Positions 36,152 to 53,784 of a stretch of DNA of 64,000 nt are shown here, piece after piece. Location of the stretch: the NCBI GenBank assembly GCA_037443005.1, contig JBBIPE010000001.1, positions 1,634 through 65,633 of the forward strand. Reading direction: 5' to 3'. A program made the translations under genes and the position numbers. Positions within the stretch are counted from its first letter, which is position 1; each line of letters begins with the position of its first letter. The notes beneath the pieces are model-generated. The model was given only the letters and a program-made list of their open reading frames with translations, was not told where the DNA came from and searched no databases. The DNA is from an archaeon (GTDB lineage: Archaea > Nanobdellota > Nanobdellia > Parvarchaeales > Parvarchaeaceae).

Positions 36152-36175
36152 ATGACAGAGTAGTTAGCGTTTAAC

Positions 36176-36523
36176 AATGTGAGCGGGAAATCCCACATCC
36201 TTTAGGTGGGATGAAAGCGAATCCAAGAAAAGAATATAACAACGAAATGACAAAATAAAATTATGGAAGTAAGAAGAGCCTACAAATTCAGAATCTATCC
36301 GCTATCTGAAAGAGTATACTACTGCAATAGATGCGGATTGCAGATAGATAGAGACACAAACGCAGCAATAAACATACTCAAAAGAGCTATCTTTGGACAA
36401 AGTAGAAGTAACGCTCAGGGAGATTCAGTAAGACCTCAAAAAGAGGCAGGAATCAAAGAACCGAGAACATATCCTGCAATAGCATGGGAAGCCCACACGC
36501 TTTGGCGGTTTGGAGGACGTCAC
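36176..36523 (+). mobile_element. Miniature IS200/IS605-family element (copy 1): LE hairpin, in-frame TnpB N/C remnant, omega-RNA-like 3' region, RE ending GGAGGACGTCAC; inserted 3' of TTAAC
   Basis: Shares LE and 3' blocks with copies at 45198, 52500 and 57288; MEVRRAYKFRIYP plus CNRCG...DRDTNAAINILKRA TnpB remnants. Confidence 0.8.
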
Positions 36524-36529
36524 TATTAA
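36263..36529 (+). pseudogene. tnpB: tnpB remnant: in-frame fusion of TnpB N-terminus to C-terminal Zn-finger and RuvC-III motif
   Basis: MEVRRAYKFRIYP ... YYCNRCGLQIDRDTNAAINILKRA; 88 aa versus about 400 aa for intact TnpB. Confidence 0.75.
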
Positions 36530-36549
36530 TAATATTTTTAGTAGTTATT

Positions 36550-39500
36550 ATGACCTACATAAAGCAGATAGAGCTTGAGAATTTCAAATCCTTTGCAGGC
36601 CATGCAAAATTCTCATTTGTAAACGGTTTTAATGCGATAGCCGGCGCAAACGGTTCAGGCAAAAGCAACATAATAGATGCGCTACTTTTTGTGTTTGGCG
36701 GCTCGTCGAAAAAAGAGATGAGAAGCGATCTTCTTACTGATCTTATATTCAATGGTGGTAAAAAAAATAGGCCTGCAGATTTTGCCAAGGTAAATGTCAT
36801 ACTAGATAATTTGAAAAAGGAGTTCAAGAGCGCAAACGGCGATGAAATATCGATAAGTAGAAAAGTTGACAAAAGCGGAAAAAGCATGTATAGAATAGAC
36901 GGAAAAGCATCAACAAGAGAGGAAGTATTAAACGTCCTTGCAATGGTGAAATTCCGGCAGGATGGCTTCAATATAATCCCACAGGGAAGAATACTGGAGA
37001 TTATAGGGTCAACTGGGGATGAAAGACTTAATCTCATAAATGATATCTCTGGCATAAGCATATTTGAAGACAAGAAAAGCAAGGCAATGAATGAAATGAA
37101 GAAAGTTGAAGACAATATATCCAAGATAGAGACTGTTCTGAACGAGAAGAAAAAATTAATGGACCAGCTAGATAAAGAAAAAACTAGAGCGATTGAATTC
37201 CAGGAACTTAAATTAAAGCAGGCCTCAAATCTTTCAAAGCAGACATTCTTTAAGAGGGATTTGGCATACAAGGACTTAAGTTCTATACAGGAAAAGTTGA
37301 AGGATATAGAGAAAAACAATCAGGAATTATCTTCGGAAATAGATAGTATAAATTTAAGGTACAAGCGGATAAACGAAGAATTAGATAACATAAACACAAA
37401 GGCAGAAGCGGAGGGCGAGAAGGATATATCCGAGGCAGAGAAAAGGACAAAGGAGTTTGATTCAGAGCTTGCCAGGCTGAATGCAGTTCTTAAAAACGAC
37501 AATGAGCAGTTAAAAAGTATACTCTCTTCCATAGAGGATCTTTCAAAATCACAGGAAGACATCCGCCAACAGGTTAAGAAAGAAGAGGAGGAAAAAAAGA
37601 AGTTTGAAGAGAAGATGGAGCAGATAAACTCCAGAAAATTCATTCTCATAGAAGCGGATTCAAAGGCTCAGAATTACCTTAAAAGCAGGGAAACTCTCGA
37701 GAAGAGGCTATATGAAAATGAGAAAAAAATATATGATCTAAAGATAATACTTACAAATTATCCAAAAGTTGCGGATCTTGAGGATCAAATAACCAAGTTA
37801 AGGGAAACTAAATCCGAAACCGAAAAGAAGCTAAAGGACATCACATTGTCCTTTTCTGCACTTAAGCCTGAGATAGATAAGCTAAAAATACAGTCTAAAC
37901 GCGAGGGAGACTCAATTTATCTTTTCAGGGAGCAGTTGCTTAACCAGAGAAATATTCTTTCATCTCAGAGTAAGGTGATAGATGTTGTCAACAAGCTAAA
38001 AAAGGAGATAAAAGGGGTTCATGGTTCAGTATCGGAGCTTTTTTCATTAAAGGATGAAAAATTCAATGTACCAGTTATAAGAGCTATAGGCAGGAGGAGC
38101 GATTTTATAATTGTTGATGACGAAAACGTAGCAAGGCAGTGCATAGAAAAGCTTAGGGAGGAAAAGCTTGGCTTTTATACATTTATCCCGATGACAACTG
38201 TAAAAACAGTATACAATCTGGAGAAGATAAATCAAGAAGGTGTAATTGACTATATAATAAATCTTGTCACTTTCAGTGATTCTTATTCAAATGCAATGAG
38301 ATTCGTATTTGGTGATACCATACTTGTTGATAACTTTGAATCTGCAAGAAAATTTATAAACAGATACCGGATGATCCTTTCCGATGGAACAGTATTTGAA
38401 AAAACCGGAACAGTTTCCGGTGGACATTTTGAAATACCTAATATCCTGAATATAAACCGCAGAATATCTGATATAAACAAGGAGATAGAGGAACATTCAA
38501 AAATAAAGGAAAAATTAGATGAAGAGATAATAGAGAAGGAAGCCACGCTGAATTCAAGCATGTCCGAAATAAAATTACTGCAGAATGCAATAAACGAGGC
38601 AAATGTAAATCTTGATAAGGTAATAAAGGAAAGATCCAAATTCACCGGAACTGAATCAGAGGTTTCAGAGAAAATAAGGAATCTTGAGAATGAGGTACTT
38701 GAAATAAAACCAAAACTTTCTGATCTTGAACAGGGTAAACCTGAAATTTCTGATCATAAAAAAGAGATAGAATCTCTGGATAGGGAAGTAAACGATTTAC
38801 AAGTAAAAATAGCGACTTCTGGCGGCAGGCTTTCAACTATTTTTATGTCAGAGCTGTCAAATCTTGAGAAAAGGTTCACTCAGTTAACAAAGGAGAAGGA
38901 CAGGTTTGAAAAAGATATAGAAGATGTTGAAGATGCAATAAATGATACCAGAGAAAATTATGAAAAGGCGAGAAAGGAGCTGTCAAGCAAATCCGATAAT
39001 CTTACAATGTTAAGGAAGAGGAGAAATGAGCTTATAAATTCTCTTTCAGCATTACAGAAGGAAAAGGATGAGTTGCTTTCAAAGTCACAGAAAGTGGGCA
39101 ATGAGCTGAATTCGCTAAAAGTAAAGGAAGCAGAGCTGAAGGTAAAGTTTGACACTGCTGATGATGAGTTCAAAAAATACAGAGTAAATGGCGCGGAACC
39201 TGCAGAGGGAGAGACACTGGAAAAAGTTACAAAGGACCTTAACATAATAATAGCCAAAATAAATTCATTCGGGCCTATTAATGAGCTTGCCCTTAATACT
39301 TTTGTTGAAACACAAAAACAGTACGAGGATTTCTCTGGCAAGCTTTCCAGCCTTAACGAGGAAAAGGAAAGGATAATTGCCGTTATAACGGACATAGAAA
39401 ACAAGAAACTAGAGTCATTCAATAAAACGCTTTCGGATATAAATTCAATATTTACAAAGGTCTTTAATTCAATAACTGGTGGGAGTGCGGAATTTGTACC

Positions 39501-41620: not shown

Positions 41621-41719
41621 ATTTATGAATAGGCTTTAGATATTAATTATATCTTGTTATAAGCGCTATAAAAATATATTTAAAGCTGAAAAACATAAGT
41701 AGTGTATAATTTTGATAGT

Positions 41720-42421
41720 ATGAAAGTACCAAGGTCTAGGAGAAGAGGAAAAAGTAGGGTCTTTAGATTTGATGATTTCAAGGCCATAGCCGAAGTCAAG
41801 CTTCCAAGGCTTCAGGATCCTATGAATGCGAGAATCATGAAGATAATACATGATCCGTATAGGACGGCTCCTTTAATGCAGTTAAAATTTGAAAATGGAG
41901 TTACTGCTTTTATACCTGCGTTTACTGGCGCTTATGAAGGCATGTTAGTAACTTATATGAAAAGCGATTCCGCAAAAAATGGGTCTATGCTTAAGTTGGG
42001 AGATATACCAACTGGAACAAATGTTTATAATATAGAGATTAAGCCTGGTGATGGAGGCAAGCTTTCCAGGGCCGGCGGAAACAGCGCAAAGGTTACAGAG
42101 AACACTGGGAATGAAGTTGCATTGTCACTGTCAAGCGGAAGGGTGATAAGACTAAATCCTAAATGCAGGGCAATTATTGGCAGGGTAGCAAATGCCGGCC
42201 GTAAAGAAAAGCCATTCTATAAGGCGGGTAACAAGTTTCATCTTATAAAAGCTAGAAGCAAATACTGGCCTATGAATGCCGCAGTGGCAATGAACGCTTA
42301 CGAGCATAAATTCGGCGGGAAGAGAAGGAGTACGCAGCACAAGTCGAAGAGTTCTGCAAGGAATTCGCCTCCTGGTGCAAAGGTCGGATCGATTGCTCCT
42401 AAGAGAACAGGTGTAAGATAA
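41720..42421 (+). CDS. rpl2: Ribosomal protein L2
   Basis: HDPYRTAPL, PTGTNVYNIE, RAGG blocks; start taken at MKVPRSRRRGKS. Confidence 0.9.
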   Translation: MKVPRSRRRGKSRVFRFDDFKAIAEVKLPRLQDPMNARIMKIIHDPYRTAPLMQLKFENGVTAFIPAFTGAYEGMLVTYMKSDSAKNGSMLKLGDIPTGTNVYNIEIKPGDGGKLSRAGGNSAKVTENTGNEVALSLSSGRVIRLNPKCRAIIGRVANAGRKEKPFYKAGNKFHLIKARSKYWPMNAAVAMNAYEHKFGGKRRSTQHKSKSSARNSPPGAKVGSIAPKRTGVR

Positions 42422-42807
42422 TGGAAGAGTATAAATTCAGAGGAAAAAGCATTGAAGAGCTTAAAAAAATGTCGAATGAGGAGCTGTCAAAAATAGCAAA
42501 TGCCGATTTTAGAAGAGTAATAAAAAGAGGATTTTCCCCAGAAGAAAAGATTTTCCTTTCAAATATGAAAAAGAAGGCTATAAAGTCCAAGCCCATCAAA
42601 ACACATATGAGAGAGATGTTTATACTTCCGGATTTTGTGGGTCTTACAATACATGTTTATAACGGAAAGGAATTTGTGCCTTTGGAGATAAAGCCACAGA
42701 TGGTTTTTCATAGATTGGGAGAGTTTGCGCTTTCAACAAAGCAAGTCAAGCATGGCTCGCCAGGTATGAAAGCTACACGTTCAAGCGGGTTCGTCCCTAT
42801 TAAGTAG
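42421..42807 (+). CDS. rps19: Ribosomal protein S19
   Basis: YNGKEFVPLEIKPQMVFHRLGEFA; 1-nt overlap TAATG. Confidence 0.9.
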   Translation: MEEYKFRGKSIEELKKMSNEELSKIANADFRRVIKRGFSPEEKIFLSNMKKKAIKSKPIKTHMREMFILPDFVGLTIHVYNGKEFVPLEIKPQMVFHRLGEFALSTKQVKHGSPGMKATRSSGFVPIK

Positions 42808-42809
42808 AT

Positions 42810-43457
42810 ATGGCAGAAAAAACAATTACAAAAAGCAAGGAGGTAGCTGTTAAGAGTGTAAAAGCCGCAAGGCAGATTACACGGCTTCAAGTGAAAAGAG
42901 AAGGCATGCCTATCTCCCTTAAGCACACTCACGAAATAATAGAAGCTGTAAAAGGAAAGGATATTACAAAGGCAGTGAATCTGCTTAAAAAAGTACTTCT
43001 AAAGGAGGCTTATATACCTTTCAGAAAATATCCGAGCAAAGGACATAAACATGGTGTTCCATCAGGATTTCCGCAGAAAGCCACTAAACAGGTAATAGAA
43101 ATGCTTGAAGAACTAAAGAGCGATGCCAAGAATATGGGATTTGATGAATCAAAGATAACTATAAGCGGTTATTCCTTGGGGAGAGGTGGATACCCACGTT
43201 TTTCAGGTGGCAATATTTATAGACACGGGAAAAGAACCAATCTTGTAATTTATTCATTTATTGATCAGGAGAGAAAAGTGGTTGAGAAAAAGACCGAAAA
43301 GTCTGAAAAAACTGAAAAGCCCGAAGATACAGCTGGAAAGAATGAAGAAAAAGCAGAAGAAAATATTGAATCGTCAGAGGAAACAGTCAAAGAAGAGGGA
43401 GCTGTACAAGAAAAGAATAAAAGCGAAGATAACAATGATTTAAAGGCGGAGAAGTGA
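42810..43457 (+). CDS. rpl22: Ribosomal protein L22 with about 60-aa acidic/Lys-rich C-terminal extension
   Basis: uL22 core in first 150 aa; tail EKKTEKSEKTEKPEDTAGKNEEKAEEN... Confidence 0.85.
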   Translation: MAEKTITKSKEVAVKSVKAARQITRLQVKREGMPISLKHTHEIIEAVKGKDITKAVNLLKKVLLKEAYIPFRKYPSKGHKHGVPSGFPQKATKQVIEMLEELKSDAKNMGFDESKITISGYSLGRGGYPRFSGGNIYRHGKRTNLVIYSFIDQERKVVEKKTEKSEKTEKPEDTAGKNEEKAEENIESSEETVKEEGAVQEKNKSEDNNDLKAEK

Positions 43458-43458
43458 T

Positions 43459-44130
43459 ATGCTACCAAAGAAAATAATATCAAATAAAGTGAGTGAAGAA
43501 GCTGCTAGAGAGTATCTTTTCAAGAAATTCAGCAGATTTGGGATAAGTGATATAAAAATAGAAAAGACTCCTCTTGGGATGAAGATAGTGATAAAGACCC
43601 CTAAGCCTGGGACAATAATCACAAGAGCTAATCAGGTTCTAAAGGAGAGTTCGAAGGATTTAGGAGAGTATTTCAATCAGGAATCACCTAGAATAGAAGT
43701 AGAGAACTCCTCAAATCCTAATTTAGATCCTGCGATAGTAGCGGATTCAATAGCTTTTAAGATAGCAAAATACGGACCAATGAAATATAAGGTCGTCGCG
43801 CATAAGGCTATGGATGCAATTATGGGAGCAGGGGCCAAGGGCGTTGAAATAGAAGTAGGTGGAGTAATCAAGGAAAGAGCTGCACATTTTAAATTCAGGC
43901 CGATTGGTAGCGTGATGCCTAAAACCGGTCAGGTGGAACTTTTTGGGGTGAGAACTGCTAAGAAGCAGCTTGTCCTTAAAAGGGGATCTATAGGCATAAA
44001 AGTTACAATAGTCGTGCCGACTGAAACAATAGGAGGTATAAAAATAAATGGCGGAAGAGAATCTGAAGGATCTGGAGATGGAGCTCCTGAAAATGAACAT
44101 AAAGAAGACGCAAGGGCTACAGCCAGCTGA
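43459..44130 (+). CDS. rps3: Ribosomal protein S3
   Basis: KH domain; conserved position after L22. Confidence 0.9.
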   Translation: MLPKKIISNKVSEEAAREYLFKKFSRFGISDIKIEKTPLGMKIVIKTPKPGTIITRANQVLKESSKDLGEYFNQESPRIEVENSSNPNLDPAIVADSIAFKIAKYGPMKYKVVAHKAMDAIMGAGAKGVEIEVGGVIKERAAHFKFRPIGSVMPKTGQVELFGVRTAKKQLVLKRGSIGIKVTIVVPTETIGGIKINGGRESEGSGDGAPENEHKEDARATAS

Positions 44131-44218
44131 TGCTGGCAAATACAGACACCTTAAAAAGAAAGTTGCACAGCTTAAGAACGAACTTAGACAGAAAGAGTTG
44201 TCTCCTACTAAGAAGTAG
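44048..44218 (+). CDS. rpl29: Ribosomal protein L29 (56 aa), overlapping the rps3 3' end in another frame
   Basis: MAEENLKDLEMELLKMNIKKTQGLQPADAGKYRHLKKKVAQLKNELRQKE matches uL29; below the ORF-track size cut-off. Confidence 0.7.
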   Translation: MAEENLKDLEMELLKMNIKKTQGLQPADAGKYRHLKKKVAQLKNELRQKELSPTKK

Positions 44219-44266
44219 GCTAATGAACATTCAAAAAAGTTTTATTTTAATAGGTTCTTCTTAGGA

Positions 44267-45151
44267 TTATCCATTTATTAAGTCAAAGAGCGTATCTAAC
44301 TGCTGCCTTTTTGCCTCTATCTGTATCTTCATCTTCTTGTACTCATCTTCGCTTATTTTCCCTGCGGCAAAGTTCTTTTCAAGGTCCGCTGATTCTTTTT
44401 CTATATCCCTAAGCTTGTTGTTCAATTTCGTAGAACCCTGCGGTCCTATCGAAAGATTACTTGAAACAGCGTTTGCAAGCTGTCTTTTGTCAAGCTTGTT
44501 GCCGTACTTCCTAGATAATTCACTGTACATCTCTGTCATATCTCCTTCAAGTTTTGAATATGAATCCTTATCCTTGAATTTGCAGTCACCGGCCAGAACT
44601 ACCCTTACGTTTGCGGACTGTTCTGTAGGGTCATAGACACCTACCACTTTGGCCCATAAAAATATCGGAACTATCTTTTTTATCTCTAGAAACACTACAG
44701 TCAATATAAAAAACATTATCATACCGTATAAAATAAGTGCAGATGGAGAATAACTAAAATGAGTTATATTAGTGTATATATCTGAGCGGTAGGAGACAGC
44801 TAATAGCACTGCAAGTATTATACCTATTATAAGGCAGGCTTTCCATGCAATAGGGTATTTTGATCCTTTTTTGTTGTCTTTTGCGCTTTTTATAAGCGCT
44901 CGTATAGGCTTTGCATTACCACCGCGGAATGTTTCCTCAAGTTCATTATCCTCAAATTTTGAGAGTTCATTAAGAAGTATCTTGTAATCCATGTCCGTCA
45001 TATACTCGGAAATCTGGCTCCTAAGAATCTGCGGATCGTCGCTTTTTATGTAAAGATCATAGAAAACATGCTTCTTTTCAAGCTCAGAAGTGTCAAATTC
45101 CCTTTCATAATTCTTTATACTGAAACCTAACATAAAGATATATGATTTCAT
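44267..45151 (-). CDS. Membrane protein (2 TM) with C-terminal SHOCT-like motif
   Basis: Central TM pair; C-terminal AGKISEDEYKKMKIQIEAK resembles SHOCT. Confidence 0.45.
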   Translation of the reverse strand: MKSYIFMLGFSIKNYEREFDTSELEKKHVFYDLYIKSDDPQILRSQISEYMTDMDYKILLNELSKFEDNELEETFRGGNAKPIRALIKSAKDNKKGSKYPIAWKACLIIGIILAVLLAVSYRSDIYTNITHFSYSPSALILYGMIMFFILTVVFLEIKKIVPIFLWAKVVGVYDPTEQSANVRVVLAGDCKFKDKDSYSKLEGDMTEMYSELSRKYGNKLDKRQLANAVSSNLSIGPQGSTKLNNKLRDIEKESADLEKNFAAGKISEDEYKKMKIQIEAKRQQLDTLFDLING

Positions 45152-45197
45152 TTAAATAAATATGTATTATCGCAGTTTTTAGGCGCTGTGGATTAAC

Positions 45198-45497
45198 AAA
45201 GATAGTGGAAAATCTCACAGTCTTTAGAAGTGGGATGAAAGCGAACCGAAAAAACTATATAACAATAAAATACAATATTAAAAATATGGAGACAGTAAGA
45301 GCCTACAAATTCAGGATTTATCCGAGAGATGTAAACGCAGGAATAAACATACTCAAAAGAGCTACCTTCGGACAGAGGGGAAGTCACGCTCTACGAGATT
45401 CTATAAGACCTCAGGTTGTGGCAGGAATCAAAGAACTGAGAACATGCTCTGCAATAGAGGAGGGATCCACACGATTTGGCGGTTGGGAGGTTGTCAC
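45198..45497 (+). mobile_element. Miniature IS200/IS605-family element (copy 2), inserted 3' of TTAAC; RE GGAGGTTGTCAC ends 3 nt before the nuoJ ATG
   Basis: LE hairpin ATCTCAC-loop-GTGGGAT; METVRAYKFRIYP...RDVNAGINILKRA remnant; conserved 3' blocks. Confidence 0.8.
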
Positions 45498-45501
45498 TTA
45501 A
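45286..45501 (+). pseudogene. tnpB: tnpB remnant (N-terminus fused to RuvC-III motif remnant); stop TAA overlaps nuoJ ATG
   Basis: METVRAYKFRIYPRDVNAGINILKRA; TAATG junction at 45499-45503. Confidence 0.7.
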
Positions 45502-45977
45502 TGGATATAGGCAGCATAGGTTTCATTATAATCTCGTTAATGCTTATTATCACTGCATTGCTCATGGTTGCTACGAGAAACATGATACATTCTCTTCTCT
45601 ATATGTTCATGTTTATTATCTCTGTAACGGCTATGATCCTTTACCTTAATGCAGTTTTTTTAGGGGTAGCAGAGCTTATAATATACAATGGCGGTATAGT
45701 CCTGCTTCTAGCGATAGGTATCAGTTCAATGCCGGAAGGAAAAATAAACAGACTTAATTCAAAGCTTGCTTATGCTCTACCTGTTGTCTTTCTTGGAGTG
45801 ATATCTTTTCTGCTTCTTAAAATGCCGTCATCATCGTATGGCAATACACTTAATTACTCTACCTTTGGAGTATACTTTTTTCAGAATTATGGTGGTTTGC
45901 TGGTTGTGCTTGCATTTACAGCGATAGCCAGCGTATTCTCTACAATATATATAATCAGTAGGGGTGATAAGCTATGA
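45501..45977 (+). CDS. nuoJ: NADH-quinone oxidoreductase subunit J
   Basis: MDIGSIGFIIISLMLIITALLMV... NuoJ TM pattern; upstream in-ORF residues are element-derived. Confidence 0.8.
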   Translation: MDIGSIGFIIISLMLIITALLMVATRNMIHSLLYMFMFIISVTAMILYLNAVFLGVAELIIYNGGIVLLLAIGISSMPEGKINRLNSKLAYALPVVFLGVISFLLLKMPSSSYGNTLNYSTFGVYFFQNYGGLLVVLAFTAIASVFSTIYIISRGDKL

Positions 45978-46276
45978 TACCGGAATCTTATTTTTTACTG
46001 CTTACCACGGTTCTTTTTGCTATAGGCTTATATGGTATACTATCTAGAAGAGAAGGCATATCTATTATAATATCATCCGAGATAATCGTGAATGCTGCAC
46101 TGATAAACTTTGTATCCGCTGCAAACTTTTATTCGAAATTAAACGGGATAAGCTATGCGTTAATCACGCTTATAATGGTTGTATTTGAAACTGTCGTTTT
46201 CATAGCCTTGATAGTGGTATTCTCAAGGAGAACCAATTCGTTATCGATATCGAAACTTAGGAGGTATAAGGGGTAG
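45974..46276 (+). CDS. nuoK: NADH-quinone oxidoreductase subunit K
   Basis: 100 aa, 3 TM, NuoK-like. Confidence 0.8.
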   Translation: MIPESYFLLLTTVLFAIGLYGILSRREGISIIISSEIIVNAALINFVSAANFYSKLNGISYALITLIMVVFETVVFIALIVVFSRRTNSLSISKLRRYKG

Positions 46277-46277
46277 T

Positions 46278-48026
46278 ATGCTTTACTTTATAGTTATACC
46301 AATGCTTGTGTCGGCGGTTATTATTGCACTGCTCGGCGAGAAAAAGAGTTTGAGCTGGCTTATAGCGGTAACCGGCTCGGCTGTTTCATTTGTAATCTCT
46401 GCGGCCATGTTCCTGTTATATTTCAATAAAAATATTATAGAGAGTTATAACTGGTTTTCGGTTTCAGGCTTGAACTTCTCAGTTTCGTTTATAGGGAATA
46501 ACCTCACGCTTTTTATGGCCCTTCTTGTTTCATTTATATCCTTTATGGTGCTTATATTCGCTGGTTTTTACATGCGGAAGGAGAAACAGTCAAGATTCTA
46601 TTCAGAGATGTCATTTTTTATATTTTCAATGCTAGGCTTGGTTATCTCAAACAGCCTTCTACTGTTTTTTATATTCTGGGAGTTTGTTGGTGTGACCTCA
46701 TATCTCTTAATAGGCTTCTGGTATGATAGAGAAGGGCCAGCAGTTTCAAGCAAAAAGGCGCTGCTTATAACAAGAATAGGGGATCTTTCATTTCTCGCTG
46801 CAATAATTATACTTTTCTCCTCTTTTCACACTTTCTCAATATCAAATATACTTGGATCTTTATCCATTGTGCCGAATTATGTGGTAATACTTGCAGGATC
46901 TCTTCTTACGATTGCTGCGTTTTCGAAGGCTGCACAGTTCCCATTTTATACCTGGCTTATTGATGCAATGGAAGGCCCTACACCGGTAAGTGCGCTTCTC
47001 CATTCAGCAACAATGGTAGCAGCGGGTGCATATCTCCTTATAAGGGTCCTTCCCTTAATCTCAGCTGCAGGTATATCTGATTTTATAGTTGTGATGGCAT
47101 TCATAACTGCATTTATAGCGGCTCTTCTCGGACTTAAAGAAAGGCATTTCAAGAAGATACTTGCATACTCTACAATAGAAAGTCTTGCCTTTATGTTCAT
47201 AGCAATAGGAACATTGAATGCCGGCGGCGCTCTTTTCTATCTTTTCACACATGCAGTTTTCAAGTCTATGCTTTTCTTCATAAGCGGGGTTTTGGCTGTA
47301 ATGTTCGGTACATATGACATATACCAGCTTAGAAGCAAAGGAACTGGAAAGACCTGGGTGATAATACCTGCAATAATAGGTTTTGCCTCAATATCAGCAA
47401 TTCCACCATTTATGAGCTTTTTTGCGCACTCTGCGCTTACATACAATTTTAATGTGTACGAGAATATAGCATTCGTTTTTGTTTCCTTCTTTACAGCTTT
47501 GTTTTCCTTCAGAGCATTATTTGTAATATTTGGAAAGCCGGCCAAAAAACCACTTAAAAAAGAGTTCAATACTATCTTTCCGATAATCACTCTTGCGGTT
47601 ATATCAACTATTGGTGGAGTTTTGCTGTATTTCTTCAGCGGTATAATATACACTCCGCATTCATTCGATTATTTCTCATTTATATCCCTTGCGGCTGCGT
47701 TTCTTGGTGCTTTCGTTTCCTATGCTGTATTCTATAAAGGCAGGGCGGTTTATTATTCATCAAAATTACATGATATCTCAGTTAAGCTTGAAGATTACAG
47801 GTACGAAAGATTTATTATATTCCTTGGCAATGCAGTTTCCTTTTTTGGAGATTATACCGCAAGATTTGACAGTGTGCTTGCAAATTCGGCATCAGCAGCC
47901 GCGGAATCTACATTTCGTCTCTCATCAATGACAAGGGAGATCGAAAATGGAGATGCGTTCAGATACTTAACCGCAGTCATTATAGGGCTTATAGTGGTTA
48001 TAGTATTGGCGGTGATATTTATATGA
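46278..48026 (+). CDS. nuoL: NADH-quinone oxidoreductase subunit L
   Basis: WEFVGVTSYLLIGFWYDR antiporter-like motif; 582 aa. Confidence 0.9.
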   Translation: MLYFIVIPMLVSAVIIALLGEKKSLSWLIAVTGSAVSFVISAAMFLLYFNKNIIESYNWFSVSGLNFSVSFIGNNLTLFMALLVSFISFMVLIFAGFYMRKEKQSRFYSEMSFFIFSMLGLVISNSLLLFFIFWEFVGVTSYLLIGFWYDREGPAVSSKKALLITRIGDLSFLAAIIILFSSFHTFSISNILGSLSIVPNYVVILAGSLLTIAAFSKAAQFPFYTWLIDAMEGPTPVSALLHSATMVAAGAYLLIRVLPLISAAGISDFIVVMAFITAFIAALLGLKERHFKKILAYSTIESLAFMFIAIGTLNAGGALFYLFTHAVFKSMLFFISGVLAVMFGTYDIYQLRSKGTGKTWVIIPAIIGFASISAIPPFMSFFAHSALTYNFNVYENIAFVFVSFFTALFSFRALFVIFGKPAKKPLKKEFNTIFPIITLAVISTIGGVLLYFFSGIIYTPHSFDYFSFISLAAAFLGAFVSYAVFYKGRAVYYSSKLHDISVKLEDYRYERFIIFLGNAVSFFGDYTARFDSVLANSASAAAESTFRLSSMTREIENGDAFRYLTAVIIGLIVVIVLAVIFI

Positions 48027-49435
48027 TAAGCTTTGTTTTTCTCCTTTTAATCCCGTTTTTAGGCATACTGATTATACTGCTAAGGAATAGTATAAACAAA
48101 AAGATATCCGCAGAATTAGTTGCATTTTGCACTATGGTTGTCACGGCGGTAATTTTCGCAGCAGGCCTTGTTTTAGGCTTTACGTCTGTAAACTTTTCTA
48201 TAACTCCTGCAATAGACTTTTACTTCTCTCTAGGCTCCAATTTTATAACTATACCTTTTCTTATTTTGGCGACTTTACTGCCTATCCCCATTCTATTCTT
48301 TGCAAATAGAGAAATAAGACAGAATGGTGGGTTGTTCTATGTTTTTTATCTGCTGATCTATCTCTCTGTTATAGGAGTATTTATCTCTTCGAATCTTATA
48401 CTATTTTTTCTCTTCTGGGAGCTTGCGGTTCTATCACTTTTCTTCCTTACGAGTTTCTGGGGCAGCCGTAAAACCTCTAGAAAATCCGGCATGAAATTTC
48501 TTGTATTCACGCAGTTCGGGAGTCTTACTCTGCTTGCGGTGTTTATACTCCTTTTTGTATACACTGGCAGTTTTAATCTCTCTTCCATAGAGGCGCATAT
48601 GTCAGCAGTCCCTGCTTATATCGAGTATATCTCCTTTTTCCTTCTTCTTATAACAGTTATGATAAAGATGCCTGTTTTTCCGCTGCATGAATGGCTTCCA
48701 GATTCATACTATGACTCTCCAATGTCCGGCACTATGCTTCTTTCAGGTATTCTGTCGAAGCTCGGCGGATTCGCTTTTATATTATTCGGATTCGGCCTTT
48801 TCAGGAACGTCCTTATAAATCTCAGAATACCTTTGGTAGCACTGGGGGTTTTCACTGCTGTTTACATAGCCTTCACAGCTTCGGGACAGAGGGACTTAAA
48901 AATGCTTCTTTCATACTCAAGCATGTTTTATATGGCCCTGGTTTTCATTGGTATATCTTCAGGCATAACTACAGCTATAACAGGTTCGGTTATACTTATG
49001 GTAAGCCACGGATTTATAATAACAATGCTGTTCGGTATATCATACTTGCTTTTCCAGAAGACTGGAACTTATAAAACATCAGAAATGTCAGGCTTGATGT
49101 CAAGAATGCCCCTTCTGGCCTTTTTCCTTATATTTGGGGTTTTTGCAAGCTTAGGTGTGCCAGGACTCTCAAACTTTCCAGGAGAACTTTTGATATTCAT
49201 AGGCAGTTATTCCGTGGCAGGGATATCTCTTATAGCAATATTCGGCATAATGCTTTCTACAAACTATTATCTCAGGGTTATAAAGGAGGCTCTGTTCGGC
49301 CAGATTCAGAAAAAATTCTCAGGAATAAAGGATATAAACAAAATAGAATTAGTGGTCTTTTCATTTCTGTCTTTTTTCATCCTTCTTATAGGACTTTTCC
49401 CTTCACTGCTTATAAATGTTCTTGGGGGGCTTTAA
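48023..49435 (+). CDS. nuoM: NADH-quinone oxidoreductase subunit M
   Basis: Antiporter-like 14-TM; 470 aa. Confidence 0.85.
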   Translation: MISFVFLLLIPFLGILIILLRNSINKKISAELVAFCTMVVTAVIFAAGLVLGFTSVNFSITPAIDFYFSLGSNFITIPFLILATLLPIPILFFANREIRQNGGLFYVFYLLIYLSVIGVFISSNLILFFLFWELAVLSLFFLTSFWGSRKTSRKSGMKFLVFTQFGSLTLLAVFILLFVYTGSFNLSSIEAHMSAVPAYIEYISFFLLLITVMIKMPVFPLHEWLPDSYYDSPMSGTMLLSGILSKLGGFAFILFGFGLFRNVLINLRIPLVALGVFTAVYIAFTASGQRDLKMLLSYSSMFYMALVFIGISSGITTAITGSVILMVSHGFIITMLFGISYLLFQKTGTYKTSEMSGLMSRMPLLAFFLIFGVFASLGVPGLSNFPGELLIFIGSYSVAGISLIAIFGIMLSTNYYLRVIKEALFGQIQKKFSGIKDINKIELVVFSFLSFFILLIGLFPSLLINVLGGL

Positions 49436-49436
49436 A

Positions 49437-50789
49437 ATGGAATATTTAAATCCAGAATATGTGATCTTCGCAGGCATTCTCCTAGTTATAATACTTGATT
49501 TTATTAGACACAGCCTCGGCTCAAGTAAAAAGTATTTTATACATTATATTACTGTCTTTATACTAGGTTTAGCTCTTGTATCTGTGGTTCTCTACGGCAA
49601 CATGAACATAAGTATGTTCTCAGAGACACAGTATTCGCAATTTATAACTGGCTTCATGCTTTTCATATCCCTGTTTGTATATCTGTTTATTCTCTCCGAA
49701 AGAACAGAGCATAGTGCAGTACTTGACATATCATATCTTTCGTCGGTACTTGGGGCCATACTCGTAGTTATATCTAGTAATTTCATTTCATTATTCCTTT
49801 CAATAGAGCTTCTTTCGATATCATCATATTCCCTTGTCTATATGTACAAGTCGAATAATGCCCTGGAGGGGGCGGTAAAATATCTTTCAACAGGTATAGT
49901 TTCGATGGTTATACTTATCTTCGGTATATCAGTCATATATGCAGGCGCAGGAACACTGTCATTTTCTTCACTGCATTCAATTTCTTATATACCGTTCATT
50001 GCAGGAGTTGCGATAGTGATTGCAGGGCTTGGCTTTAAATCTACTCTTGTTCCGTTTCATATGTGGGCTCCAGATACTTATGAGGCTTCAAATAGCTCTG
50101 TTACAGCGTTTATATCCTCTGTTTCAAAGGCAGCTGGACTGGTTGCAATGATTAGGGTATTTTTCTTCGCTTTGCCAGTTTCATCCGGATTTGTTACGGC
50201 TTTATTCCTTTCAATAGCACTTATAACTATATTTCTCAGTGCATTTTTGGCATCTGTTCAAGACAGGGTTAAAAGACTTTTGGCTTATTCAAGCATATCC
50301 CAGGCAGGGTTTGCCTTTATAAGCCTTGCAGTATTGACAACCAAGGGAGTCAATGCGGCGGTCTTCTATATCTTTGCATTTGCTGTTGCTGATGCCATAG
50401 TTTTTCTTGCGTATAGCCTATTCGAGAGCAAAAAGATAATCTATAAAAAGGATATTGGAAAGATGTACGAAGTGTCTAAAGTAGGTGCGATCGCATTTTT
50501 CATAGGGATATTATCATTGGCTGGGTTTCCGCCTACAATAGGATTTTTCGGTAAGCTTCTCATATTCTATGCGCTTTTAAGCAGTGGTTATACTCCTATA
50601 GTAATCCTTCTGTTCTTCTCCCTTTTAGTTTCCACTTTTTATTACTTCAATCTGCTTGCAGGTATGCAGTTTATAAAAGGTATGGCTAAAAGCGGTTCAA
50701 AACAGAAAATAAACCGCGAGCAGAGAATAAAAGAAGTAATCCTTATAATACTTACTGTGTCGTTGTTTGTAGGGGTCATTTTTGCATAG
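49437..50789 (+). CDS. nuoN: NADH-quinone oxidoreductase subunit N
   Basis: Antiporter-like; start at MEYLNPEY just after nuoM stop. Confidence 0.8.
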   Translation: MEYLNPEYVIFAGILLVIILDFIRHSLGSSKKYFIHYITVFILGLALVSVVLYGNMNISMFSETQYSQFITGFMLFISLFVYLFILSERTEHSAVLDISYLSSVLGAILVVISSNFISLFLSIELLSISSYSLVYMYKSNNALEGAVKYLSTGIVSMVILIFGISVIYAGAGTLSFSSLHSISYIPFIAGVAIVIAGLGFKSTLVPFHMWAPDTYEASNSSVTAFISSVSKAAGLVAMIRVFFFALPVSSGFVTALFLSIALITIFLSAFLASVQDRVKRLLAYSSISQAGFAFISLAVLTTKGVNAAVFYIFAFAVADAIVFLAYSLFESKKIIYKKDIGKMYEVSKVGAIAFFIGILSLAGFPPTIGFFGKLLIFYALLSSGYTPIVILLFFSLLVSTFYYFNLLAGMQFIKGMAKSGSKQKINREQRIKEVILIILTVSLFVGVIFA

Positions 50790-51565: not shown

Positions 51566-52498
51566 ATGAGTCCAGAAGAATTTTGGGGTTTTATAATTGG
51601 GGTTATAGCTCTTGTTTTATTGTTAGCATCCAGCATTTTCTTTTCGGCATTGTTTTATCTGTTTATAGCAATCTTTATAGTACTTCTTGGCAGCATCTTT
51701 TTCATCGTTTTCGTGAAGAAATACAGCCAGTTTGAAAGAGGAATAATATTCAGATTGGGTAAGTTCAACAGGATAACAGGACCGGGTTGGGCGGTAGTAA
51801 TTCCTTTCTTTGAACAAGAATACAAAAAGGTGGATGTACGTGTAAAGATGATGGATTTAAGTTCACAGAATATATTCACTGCAGACGACCTTAAACTCTC
51901 GATTGATGGTACTATATATTATCAGATAGTAGATCCGGAAAAAGCTACTTTACAGATTGATAATTATGGTCAGGGCCTTTCAAACCTTGTTCAGTCCGCA
52001 GTCAGGAATTCAATAGCTTCGCTTACAATGAGACAGGTTTTCAGTAGTCTTGACAGGCTGAATGATATACTTGCAGACGCTATAAGGCATATGACCTGGA
52101 AATGGGGGATAGATGTACCTTCTGTACAGATAAGGAGCGTTTCTCCATCCAATGAAGTTATACAGGCCATGCAGCAGCCTGAAATAGCTGCAAATCTTTT
52201 GCAGGCGCAGAGATTCAAGGCTGAAGCCCAAAAGATAGTAATAGAAGCCATAGGAGAAGGAGGTAAATCGCTTGATGACAAATCTATAATGTATCTTTAC
52301 CTACAGGCTTTGAAGCAAGTTGGGGAATCCAGCTCCTCAAAGATAGTGCTGCCTATGCAGTTCATGCAGGGTGCCGGAAATATGTTAGGAGGTATAGCAG
52401 GCCTTTCTGCAACGGCTTTAGCTTCTCTTGGAGGACAGGAAAACGTCCAGAACGTAATAGACAAGATAAAGGAAAAAATATCGCGCGCTGGCGGTTAA
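51566..52498 (+). CDS. SPFH/band-7 (stomatin/prohibitin-like) membrane protein
   Basis: N-terminal TM hairpin plus SPFH core. Confidence 0.8.
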   Translation: MSPEEFWGFIIGVIALVLLLASSIFFSALFYLFIAIFIVLLGSIFFIVFVKKYSQFERGIIFRLGKFNRITGPGWAVVIPFFEQEYKKVDVRVKMMDLSSQNIFTADDLKLSIDGTIYYQIVDPEKATLQIDNYGQGLSNLVQSAVRNSIASLTMRQVFSSLDRLNDILADAIRHMTWKWGIDVPSVQIRSVSPSNEVIQAMQQPEIAANLLQAQRFKAEAQKIVIEAIGEGGKSLDDKSIMYLYLQALKQVGESSSSKIVLPMQFMQGAGNMLGGIAGLSATALASLGGQENVQNVIDKIKEKISRAGG

Positions 52499-52499
52499 A

Positions 52500-52985
52500 A
52501 ATGTGAGCGGGAAATCTCACAGTCTTTAGAAGTGGGATGAAAACGAAATTCGGATAAAATATATATTAGCATGTTATTAGCATGTAAAACAACATAAAAG
52601 ATATGGAGGTAATAAGATCCTATAAATTCAGGATCTATCCAGACATAAAGAGACAGTCGGAAATAGACAATATGCTCGTTCTTGCGCAAAGGCTTTACAA
52701 CAAACTACTTGAGAAATCAATTCAGTCATACAAGAACGGAAATAGTAAAATCTCCATGTCGCAGTTCAATGAATTCGAGAAAGAGACAGATACAAATATA
52801 TCAGTAAATATACTCAGAATAGCTACCATCGGACAAAGTAGAAGTAACATTCAGGGAGATTCTGTTAGACTTCAAAAGGAGGCGGGAATCAAAGAACTGA
52901 GAACCGGTAAAACATATCCTTTGCATAATGCGGTAAACACATGAAACAAAGGAAGCCCATGGAATTTATTCGTGGGAGGATTCAC
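52500..52985 (+). mobile_element. Miniature IS200/IS605-family element (copy 3), inserted 3' of TTAAA (which contains the SPFH stop); RE GGAGGATTCAC contains the stop codon of the convergent HAD gene
   Basis: LE identical to copy 1 over AATGTGAGCGGGAAATC; longest TnpB N-terminal remnant; RE of copy-4 type. Confidence 0.8.
52603..52944 (+). pseudogene. tnpB: tnpB remnant retaining about 45 aa of the TnpB N-terminal region fused to the RuvC-III motif remnant
   Basis: MEVIRSYKFRIYPDIKRQSEIDNMLVLAQRLYNKLLEK ... TDTNISVNILRIA. Confidence 0.7.
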
Positions 52986-53712: not shown

Positions 53713-53784
53713 AGCCTCCGACGGGTGCTGGCCCCGTGACCTTCTGCTTACAAGGCAGACGCTCTGCCGCTGAGCTACGGAGGC
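53713..53784 (-). tRNA. tRNA-Thr (anticodon UGU) with non-canonical T-loop GCCAGCA
   Basis: Manual cloverleaf: perfect 7-bp acceptor GCCTCCG/CGGAGGC, anticodon loop CTTGTAA, T-stem ACGGG/CCCGT. Confidence 0.65.

Follow-up and report, generated by a model that had tools for sequence, protein, structure and literature searches.

How are transcription and translation started at a gene whose start codon lies only 3 nt beyond the end of a mobile element remnant? This question is raised by nuoJ, the first gene of the nuoJKLMN cluster in a tiny acid-mine archaeon of Candidatus Parvarchaeota, located in a 64-kb stretch of DNA (hereafter the window; all positions are those of the whole stretch) that belongs to a contig of 95.7 kb in all. 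The sequence in front of nuoJ is an internally deleted, non-autonomous element of the IS200/IS605 family of insertion sequences (IS; TnpA/TnpB type), similar to palindrome-associated transposable elements (PATEs) or miniature inverted-repeat transposable elements (MITEs). It occupies 301 nt (45197–45497, + strand) and is one of three copies in the window, of which it is referred to below as copy 2. With moderate confidence, the locus is best explained overall by a PATE-like element that came to lie beside the gene for ordinary reasons, with nuoJ putatively expressed from the tnpB promoter of the element and translated by coupling to its remnant open reading frame (ORF).

Copy 2 ends with ...GGAGGTTGTCAC at 45497 and the ATG of nuoJ occupies 45501–45503, both as given in the original prediction; the junction reads ...cggttgGGAGGttGTCAC (its C being 45497), followed by tta and the start codon. 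The remnant ORF of copy 2 (71 aa, 45286–45501, + strand) stops at TAA 45499–45501, the last A of which is the first A of the nuoJ ATG (TAATG). Copy 1 (349 nt, 36175–36523, + strand), 80% identical to copy 2 across about 300 nt, ends with GTCAC at 36523, leaving 26 nt before the smc ATG at 36550, and both copies lie on the same strand (+) as the gene downstream. These earlier readings of the stop and of copy 1 were likewise borne out, and a third copy that had gone unmentioned was found at 52499–52985 (487 nt, + strand).

The nuoJ gene (158 aa, 45501–45977, + strand) was assigned by a Pfam Oxidored_q3 match and by synteny in relatives. Its true start is 45501, although the ORF is open from 45444, because a length of 158 aa is shared by each of the 21 full-length close homologues (E ≤ 1e-64) and the Oxidored_q3 match starts at residue 19. 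The N terminus of SMC, MTYIKQIELENFKSF, is the same in relatives, which confirms the smc start. The ORFs open from 45444 and from 36484 are artefacts of the open frame of the element, and annotation of such loci calls for caution. NuoJ shares 87% identity with its counterpart in Candidatus Parvarchaeum acidophilus, and the remaining named homologues are all from Parvarchaeota. An independent assembly of the same population, Logan SRR11582165 contig L001 (1–152), starts at the equivalent of 45349, inside copy 2, a break expected for a multi-copy repeat, and confirms the sequence of the right-end/nuoJ junction.

The element, its family and its insertion sites

The proposal of a TnpB remnant whose 3' part resembles an omega-RNA was upheld. 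The remnant ORF of copy 1 (88 aa) matches Pfam Cas12f1-like_TNB and, more weakly, HTH_OrfB_IS605. Comparison by tblastn with P0080, a full-length TnpB of 418 aa, revealed that copy 1 retains residues 1–13 and about 346–410 (segments 1–17 and 340–410), copy 2 residues 1–13 and 357–417, and copy 3 residues 1–62 and 356–399. Copy 2 consists of the left end, the tnpB promoter with the first 13 codons, the last ~57 codons and the right end; its ORF, METVRAYKFRIYP|RDVNAGINILKRA...WEVVT*, joins tnpB codons 1–13 in frame to the last ~57. The parts kept are those required in cis for mobility (ends with subterminal palindromes) and those of a guide RNA (the tnpB promoter and first codons and a 3' scaffold of ~165 nt).

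A profile search returned 35 protein relatives at E ≤ 0.001, all 64–181 aa long and including the three remnants of this contig. Apart from P0077 (73 aa, E 1.1e-5, 12% query coverage), which is too weak to be classed, all of them are remnants in which M..RAYKFRIYP is joined at varied breakpoints to DRDxNAxINILKRA...ELRT..., and they originate from Parvarchaeota-type contigs and Mancarchaeum. Two of them, P0044 and P0045, carry at other contigs exactly the junction of copy 1 (IYP|LSERVYY), which suggests that the deleted form of the copy 1 type may itself have moved. Exact look-ups of P0044, P0045 and the cdvA-like protein encoded beside nuoJ found no contigs. Full-length TnpBs of 411–437 aa (P0080, P0082–84 and P0092) were recovered by exhaustive HMMER search. 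The 64-kb window contains no intact TnpB or TnpA, the remnants of 71–113 aa lacking the RuvC core. A fourth, more divergent TnpB remnant (P0072, 76 aa, 57% identical to copy 1) is encoded on the same contig outside the window.

A metagenome protein-profile scan yielded mostly unrelated TnpBs, and only L132–L139 were close enough for use. TTAA|C and the left end GTGAGCGGGAAATCCCAC..GTGGGATGAAAGCGAA are followed in L133 by a gene for a TnpB of 407 aa, in which each of the three Pfam domains is present, and by the right end ..GGGAGGATGTCAC; L136 is a second full-length copy, and the two share both ends around a TnpB of 407–423 aa. In L139 the same left end is followed directly by a gene for a Y1 (IS200-type) TnpA (Y1_Tnp). 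The ends of the family are CTTTAG(N0-2)GTGGGATGAAAGCGAA on the left and GGAGGNNGTCAC on the right, the latter invariably finishing with ..GGAGGnnGTCAC. Searches with short nucleotide queries added no members: a 17-nt query, GGCRGGAATCAAAGAAC, gave only chance matches in unrelated bacteria among genome contigs, and a 24-nt query had no matches among metagenome contigs. Both ends carry palindromes, ATCCCAC..GTGGGAT at the left and CCCACnCCG..CGGnTGGG at the right. The left-end box is also present in L133, L136 and L139 and reads ATCTCAC(11 nt)GTGGGAT in copy 2 (45212–45236, + strand), with one T:G mismatch, while the right-end stem covaries (helix 7). The end palindromes of copies 1 and 2 have 1–2 mismatches, and single-sequence DNA folds of these ends are no better than those of shuffles.

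The target is TTAA, found 5' of the left end in all six members compared (copies 1–3, L133, L136 and L139), five of which read TTAAC. For copy 2 this target or transposon-adjacent motif lies at 45193–45196 (+ strand) and possibly extends as TTAAC to 45197, so its left boundary is defined to within one base (45197 if the target is TTAA, 45198 if TTAAC). The relatives L129 and L130/L131 are syntenic over the whole 20 kb and empty at all three sites; the copy 2 site is empty in L129, L010 and L130. Copy 1 lies in the trmB-smc spacer after TTAA 36171–36174. Its joined flanks, gtagttagcgtTTAA|TATTAATAAT, align without gaps to gtagttagcgtTTAATATTAAAA and ..TATCAAAA of the relatives, and the empty site reconstructed in this way equals L129 and L130 exactly and fits TTAA|element|T. 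The insertion was therefore precise, 3' of TTAA and without duplication, and the right end is ...GTCAC. In L129 and L130 the empty sites equal left flank plus right flank with nothing duplicated, and the element has no terminal inverted repeats. At the third site, the convergent Band_7 and HAD genes of L129 and L130 overlap in a TTAA that provides both stops. Copy 3 is inserted in that TTAA (52495–52498), so that the Band_7 TAA is kept, while the reading frame of HAD now closes within the right end, at 52982–52984 (TCA, or TGA as read on the minus strand), with one C-terminal residue changed.

The copy 2 site is a short divergent spacer between the cdvA-like gene and nuoJ. Insertion at a TTAA overlapping the nuoJ ATG was rejected, as the right flank would then be TGG and not TTAATGG. 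The spacer upstream of nuoJ is 409 nt long in the relatives similar to Parvarchaeum acidophilus (L002/L130; region 2620–3000 in L002) and 88–117 nt in others. The longer form carries, at the same TTAAT, an unassigned insert in which a direct repeat, TTAATTAGCTT...GGAGTTATT, occurs twice, and the spacer seems to be a hot spot of insertion.

The 3' part of copy 2 (45334–45497, + strand, the 5' limit being approximate) is predicted to be an omega-RNA-like scaffold that overlaps the 3' end of tnpB and ends at the right end. The prediction is based on an alignment, A4, of the 3' regions of nine members: the three copies of the window together with six relatives, of which two are full-length. RNAalifold applied to A4 found 36 pairs, 19 of them with compensatory changes. 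With the structure fixed, 91% of cells pair, against 41–51% when the partners are slid by 1–3 columns, a comparison biased in favour of the structure, which was derived from the same alignment; none of 500 shuffles reached the observed values. The window copies retain 30–32 of the 36 pairs, and copy 2 retains 32. A putative long-range helix that includes the GGAG close to the right end is conserved, with no compensatory change among its pairs. Single-sequence folds of the omega-RNA region and of the ends were no better than shuffles, the comparative analysis alone being informative. Rfam gave no match at the gathering threshold or at E ≤ 10; its sotRNA models, RF02656 and RF02657, are haloarchaeal, as are the curated sotRNA families (PMC12558985).

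The element belongs to a well-known type, being another PATE of an omega-RNA-bearing IS200/IS605 family. Its analysis documents PATEs bearing TnpB and omega-RNA parts in Parvarchaeota, with the target (TTAA) and the right end (GTCAC) fixed by empty-site comparisons.

Expression signals of nuoJKLMN

Promoter geometry was evaluated by pattern counts on the predicted ORFs of the window. Transcription units typically begin with a gene whose TATA-like box is centred 24–28 nt upstream of its ATG, a leaderless geometry, while internal genes of operons carry GGAGG or AGGTG starting from -12 to -10 and stop/start overlaps, such as TAATG at the L2/S19 junction. Three relatives share ATTATTTATTT 20–21 nt before the nuoJ ATG, which corresponds to leaderless geometry. 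In the window this box is absent, along with about 30–60 nt of the nuoJ spacer of the relatives, and TTA is all that separates the right end from the ATG. Because the right end lies 3 nt from the ATG and the TATA box of the relatives is missing, the nuoJKLMN mRNA must start in the element or cross it. Two histories could account for this arrangement: it is possible that ~30 nt beside the right end were lost after insertion at the distal TTAA(T), or that the spacer was short in this lineage and the element entered a TTAA at -7 to -4, as in L213, another member of the family.

The original prediction placed the native promoters of both nuoJ and smc within or beyond the element and considered a promoter donated by it. 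In the case of nuoJ, the interval from element to ATG is left without a native promoter, and donation is plausible, as the element has an internal TATA box at canonical distance; for smc neither idea is needed, since a TATA-like box is kept downstream of copy 1. A search for such a box near 45230–45280 was rewarded by a TATA-like aCTATATAA at 45254–45262 (+ strand), ~27–28 nt upstream of the remnant ATG; this CTATATAA is centred 27.5 nt before that ATG, and copy 1 has an equivalent, AATATAAC, at 36233–36240. Comparison with orthologous loci showed that the box ATTATTTATTT of the relatives is absent here and that the TAATG context is native there.

The most likely mechanism for nuoJ would be read-through from the element promoter with coupled or Shine-Dalgarno-led initiation. 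Transcription would start at the tnpB promoter of the element and continue through the omega-RNA region, which contains no oligo-T terminator (no T5 run occurs between 45181 and 45654 on the + strand). The nuoJ gene would then be translated as an internal operon gene by virtue of the TAATG overlap with the in-frame 71-codon ORF and of GGAGG (45486–45490, + strand), a Shine-Dalgarno-like motif conserved near the family right end and located here at -15 to -11 of the nuoJ ATG. Translational coupling to the remnant ORF, as suggested earlier, is predicted to be plausible on the same grounds, the junction of the remnant ORF with nuoJ resembling the native internal junctions of operons. The tnpB frame is open through the right end in this family (P0080 ends in ...LEDVTR*, P0045 in ..WEDVT and copy 2 in ...WEVVT*), and therefore the stop codon comes from the flank. 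The idea that the remnant stop is a feature of the element was rejected: TAATG belongs to the native flank of nuoJ, the relatives reading gacTAATG and agtTAATG. The nuoJKLMN cluster likely depends on the remnant for its putative expression signals. A scan for bacterial sigma-70 promoters and terminators found nothing, the method being inapplicable to an archaeon, and a literature search on omega-RNA read-through into host genes found nothing relevant.

Several observations weigh against this reading. Transcription start, read-through and coupling have all been deduced from the DNA sequence. The GGAGG lies 3 nt further from the ATG than the usual Shine-Dalgarno position of the genome, and in the consensus fold it is paired with ACUC ~170 nt upstream, in a helix devoid of compensatory changes. 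Both end palindromes of copy 2 carry mismatches, and the copy may be a fossil in decay, with a promoter that has been weakened as well. With no TnpA or intact TnpB in the window, present-day mobility and use of the omega-RNA are at most putative. The closest relatives are only 85–87% identical in NuoJ, and the ~30 nt of native promoter may either have been deleted or never have been present in this lineage. Finally, the element TATA box is one of three + strand candidate promoters for nuoJ, the alternatives being a perfect native TTTAAATA (45151–45158) upstream of the left end and a copy-specific ATTCTATA (45398–45405).

The first of these alternatives would make the element passive: a native divergent promoter upstream of the left end, either TTTAAATA or a T-rich box at 45173–45183, would drive nuoJKLMN, with the 301-nt element as a 5' leader and translation starting from GGAGG. 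A perfect TATA consensus 40 nt upstream of the left end agrees with such an arrangement, as does the native TATA TTATTATT just upstream of the left end in L213, which indicates that the family inserts between TATA and ATG. However, in relatives TTTAAATA suits the leaderless promoter of the divergent gene (288 aa), whose start is 20–25 nt away, a T5 run (45176–45180), an archaeal termination signal, follows it on the + strand, and the element has its own TATA at canonical spacing; this alternative is considered unlikely. Even less probable is a new promoter within the omega-RNA region of copy 2, where ATTCTATA would give a leader of ~70 nt bearing GGAGG. This box, which scores 6/8 against the TATA consensus, arose by a G-to-A change unique to copy 2 (TCTATAAG, compared with TCAGTAAG in copy 1 and TCTGTTAG in copy 3); L132, L133, L134 and L137 have TGTAAG there, while L135 and L136 diverge at that position. 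It is, however, a single substitution producing a weak match without conservation, in a scaffold loop position where the change could be neutral.

The insertion could also have silenced nuoJKLMN, the cluster becoming a pseudogene in a reduced genome. The loss of the proximal promoter and the reduced metabolisms of DPANN archaea are in line with silencing, but the lengths of NuoJ, K, L and M (158, 100, 582 and 470 aa) are exactly those of the relatives, and no frameshifts or stops interrupt the cluster; NuoN is 457 aa by the longest ORF here and 450 aa as called in the relatives. Moreover, the nuo genes are intact while the element has already diverged by ~20% from its sister copy, so the operon is argued to be still in use and silencing appears very unlikely. 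Use of the remnant's tnpB promoter with coupled translation is retained as the preferred explanation. It would represent a concrete case of a respiratory operon that lacks its own core promoter and apparently relies on a transposon remnant for initiation of both transcription and translation; confirmation at the transcript level would make it a neat exaptation of a mobile element in a very reduced archaeal genome.

Guide RNA, placement and known systems

The predicted guide segment of the copy 2 omega-RNA, assigned by position, is the native flank at 45498–45517 (+ strand), including the nuoJ start codon. The original prediction also considered guides that match the starts of essential genes. 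This is true by construction, every IS200/IS605 guide being the right-end flank, and does not amount to evidence of gene targeting: the guide of copy 2 contains the nuoJ start automatically because it equals the DNA beside the right end. An off-target search of the window gave no second guide target beyond chance. The copies might still be regarded as guide-RNA genes that guide TnpB, or a TnpB-like repressor without nuclease activity, to the nuoJ and smc starts, given the intact-looking omega-RNA scaffold with gene starts directly 3' of it and the description of TldRs, domesticated nuclease-dead TnpB repressors with guide RNAs (PMC10705468). Against this, the guide equals the flank for every insertion of the family, the match at the occupied locus is preceded by GTCAC rather than by the TTAA motif, no TnpB or TldR-like ORF is present in the window, the "guide" of copy 3 is the 3' end of a convergent gene, and no second genomic target was found, all of which makes such a role extremely improbable. 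The resemblance to TldR systems is confined to a TnpB-type guide scaffold adjoining sequence that matches the promoter/start region of a host gene; without a TnpB-like protein gene, with a guide that matches only its own flank and without a target motif, the locus is not a member.

That the copies lie close to start codons and in the orientation of the genes may be no more than chance, in contrast to the repeat itself, which clearly exceeds it. Coding sequence fills ~83% of the window, with spacers of tens of nt, and the + strand carries the majority of genes from 30 to 58 kb. Insertion of IS200/IS605 elements is strand-specific relative to replication. Co-orientation is expected because of this strand specificity and of the local gene bias. 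Three ordinary causes appear to account for most of the placement by gene ends: TTAA targets occur within AT-rich TATA boxes and TAA stop codons, the spacers are short, and an insertion persists only where the adjacent genes still function.

The distance from the right end to a co-oriented ATG is 0 nt in L136 (Pro_dh gene), 3 nt in copy 2 (nuoJ), 3 nt in L213 (NT5C, next to an intact tnpB), 26 nt in copy 1 (smc), 28 nt in L133 (a PALP enzyme) and 181 nt in L135 (a gene that was not identified). Insertions of copy 3, L134 and L137 abut or overlap the 3' ends of convergent genes, and no convincing gene start could be assigned in the right-end flank of L132. In L213 (2739–2757) the tnpB stop overlaps the NT5C start as ATGA, 3 nt past the right end, with GGAGG at -15 to -11; in L136 (1386–1408) the tnpB ORF ends 10 nt into Pro_dh, which starts at the right end, with GGAGG at -12 to -8. 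This right-end/ATG geometry recurs at three unrelated genes in three genomes and may well be a rule for such insertions. Distances of 4–25 nt occur in none of five insertions, compared with 19 of 30 TTAA sites available within 35 nt upstream of window genes ((11/30)^5, P about 0.007), in a post hoc test of five events from different genomes with approximate gene starts. The distribution fits selection against insertions between the TATA box and the ATG, while those that lie ahead of the box, or immediately at the ATG with GGAGG and the open frame able to take over, would be tolerated. The geometry at the three genes thus hints at a rule of viability for insertions before leaderless archaeal genes.

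Taken further, the right end, with its open tnpB frame, GGAGG 7 nt from the end and no terminator after it, might be pre-adapted for landing before leaderless genes, turning the host gene into a second cistron. In insertions 0–3 nt before the ATG, the scaffold and guide would overlap the ribosome-binding site and first codons of the gene. The omega-RNA is processed from tnpB mRNA (PMC10278001), and because of this TnpB supplied in trans could, speculatively, bind the scaffold or guide in a chimeric nuoJ mRNA and affect its translation. If such chimeric mRNAs were bound or cleaved, the expression of nuoJKLMN and, in relatives, of Pro_dh and NT5C would become linked to the activity of the transposon, an idea that is tentative and itself improbable.

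PATEs arise by core deletion of IS605-type elements in archaea and were first described in Haloquadratum walsbyi (PMC3119063). They often encode omega-RNAs used in trans and have also been noted in Geobacillus; the omega-RNA guide corresponds to the empty site, target motif and flank together, and functions in retention of the transposon (PMC10055086). Like PATEs, the present element has subterminal palindromes, no inverted terminal repeats, a 4–5 nt target and no target duplication, and it was formed by internal deletion of a tnpB-bearing element, with several breakpoints per family and the omega-RNA part kept for TnpB in trans. It differs in its DPANN host, in keeping an in-frame mini-ORF with the tnpB promoter rather than the ends only, and in having one copy 3 nt from the start codon of an operon. 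With canonical IS200/IS605 elements (IS608, ISDra2; archaeal sotRNAs RF02656/RF02657) it shares the order of left end, (tnpA), tnpB and an omega-RNA that overlaps the tnpB 3' end up to the right end, a guide equal to the flank and a target motif 5' of the left end, and a Y1 TnpA with the same left end occurs in L139. Unlike in these elements, tnpB is gutted, tnpA is absent, the frame runs through the right end, no Rfam model matches and the motif is TTAA(C).

IS elements of bacteria and archaea can drive adjacent genes via outward or hybrid promoters. The nuoJ locus is similar in that a mobile element lies just upstream of a host gene, co-oriented with it, as a probable source of its transcription; it would differ in being served by the promoter of tnpB and the omega-RNA, from which transcription would pass through the guide, with a stop/start overlap for translation.

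The smc locus and neighboring genes

The 26 nt between copy 1 and smc (36524–36549, + strand) represent a native leader/promoter remnant with a TATA-like TATTAATA (36524–36531), centred at -22.5 from the ATG, and T5 (36535–36539). This TATTAATA is the 3' part of the ancestral TTTAA|TATTAAT box split by the insertion. Since it is kept after the right end, smc needs no donated promoter and probably still uses its own TATA-like box; co-transcription with trmB could also occur.

The nuoJKLMN cluster (41702–50789 region) follows a ribosomal protein cluster (L2, S19, L22, S3) and a divergent gene, and nuoA–I are not adjacent to it, either here or in any syntenic relative. The divergent neighbor of nuoJ (44267–45151, - strand) has a weak CdvA-like coiled-coil match (E 0.0045, below the Pfam cut-off); judging by its relatives (288 aa), it probably starts at 45133 and not at 45151. 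Near copy 3, Rfam revealed a tRNA at 53713–53784 (- strand, 57.5 bits), which ARAGORN did not report. The HAD gene lies just downstream of it, and the tRNA is overrun by the longest ORF of that gene (290 aa from a TTG start); the HAD proteins of relatives are 239–241 aa long.

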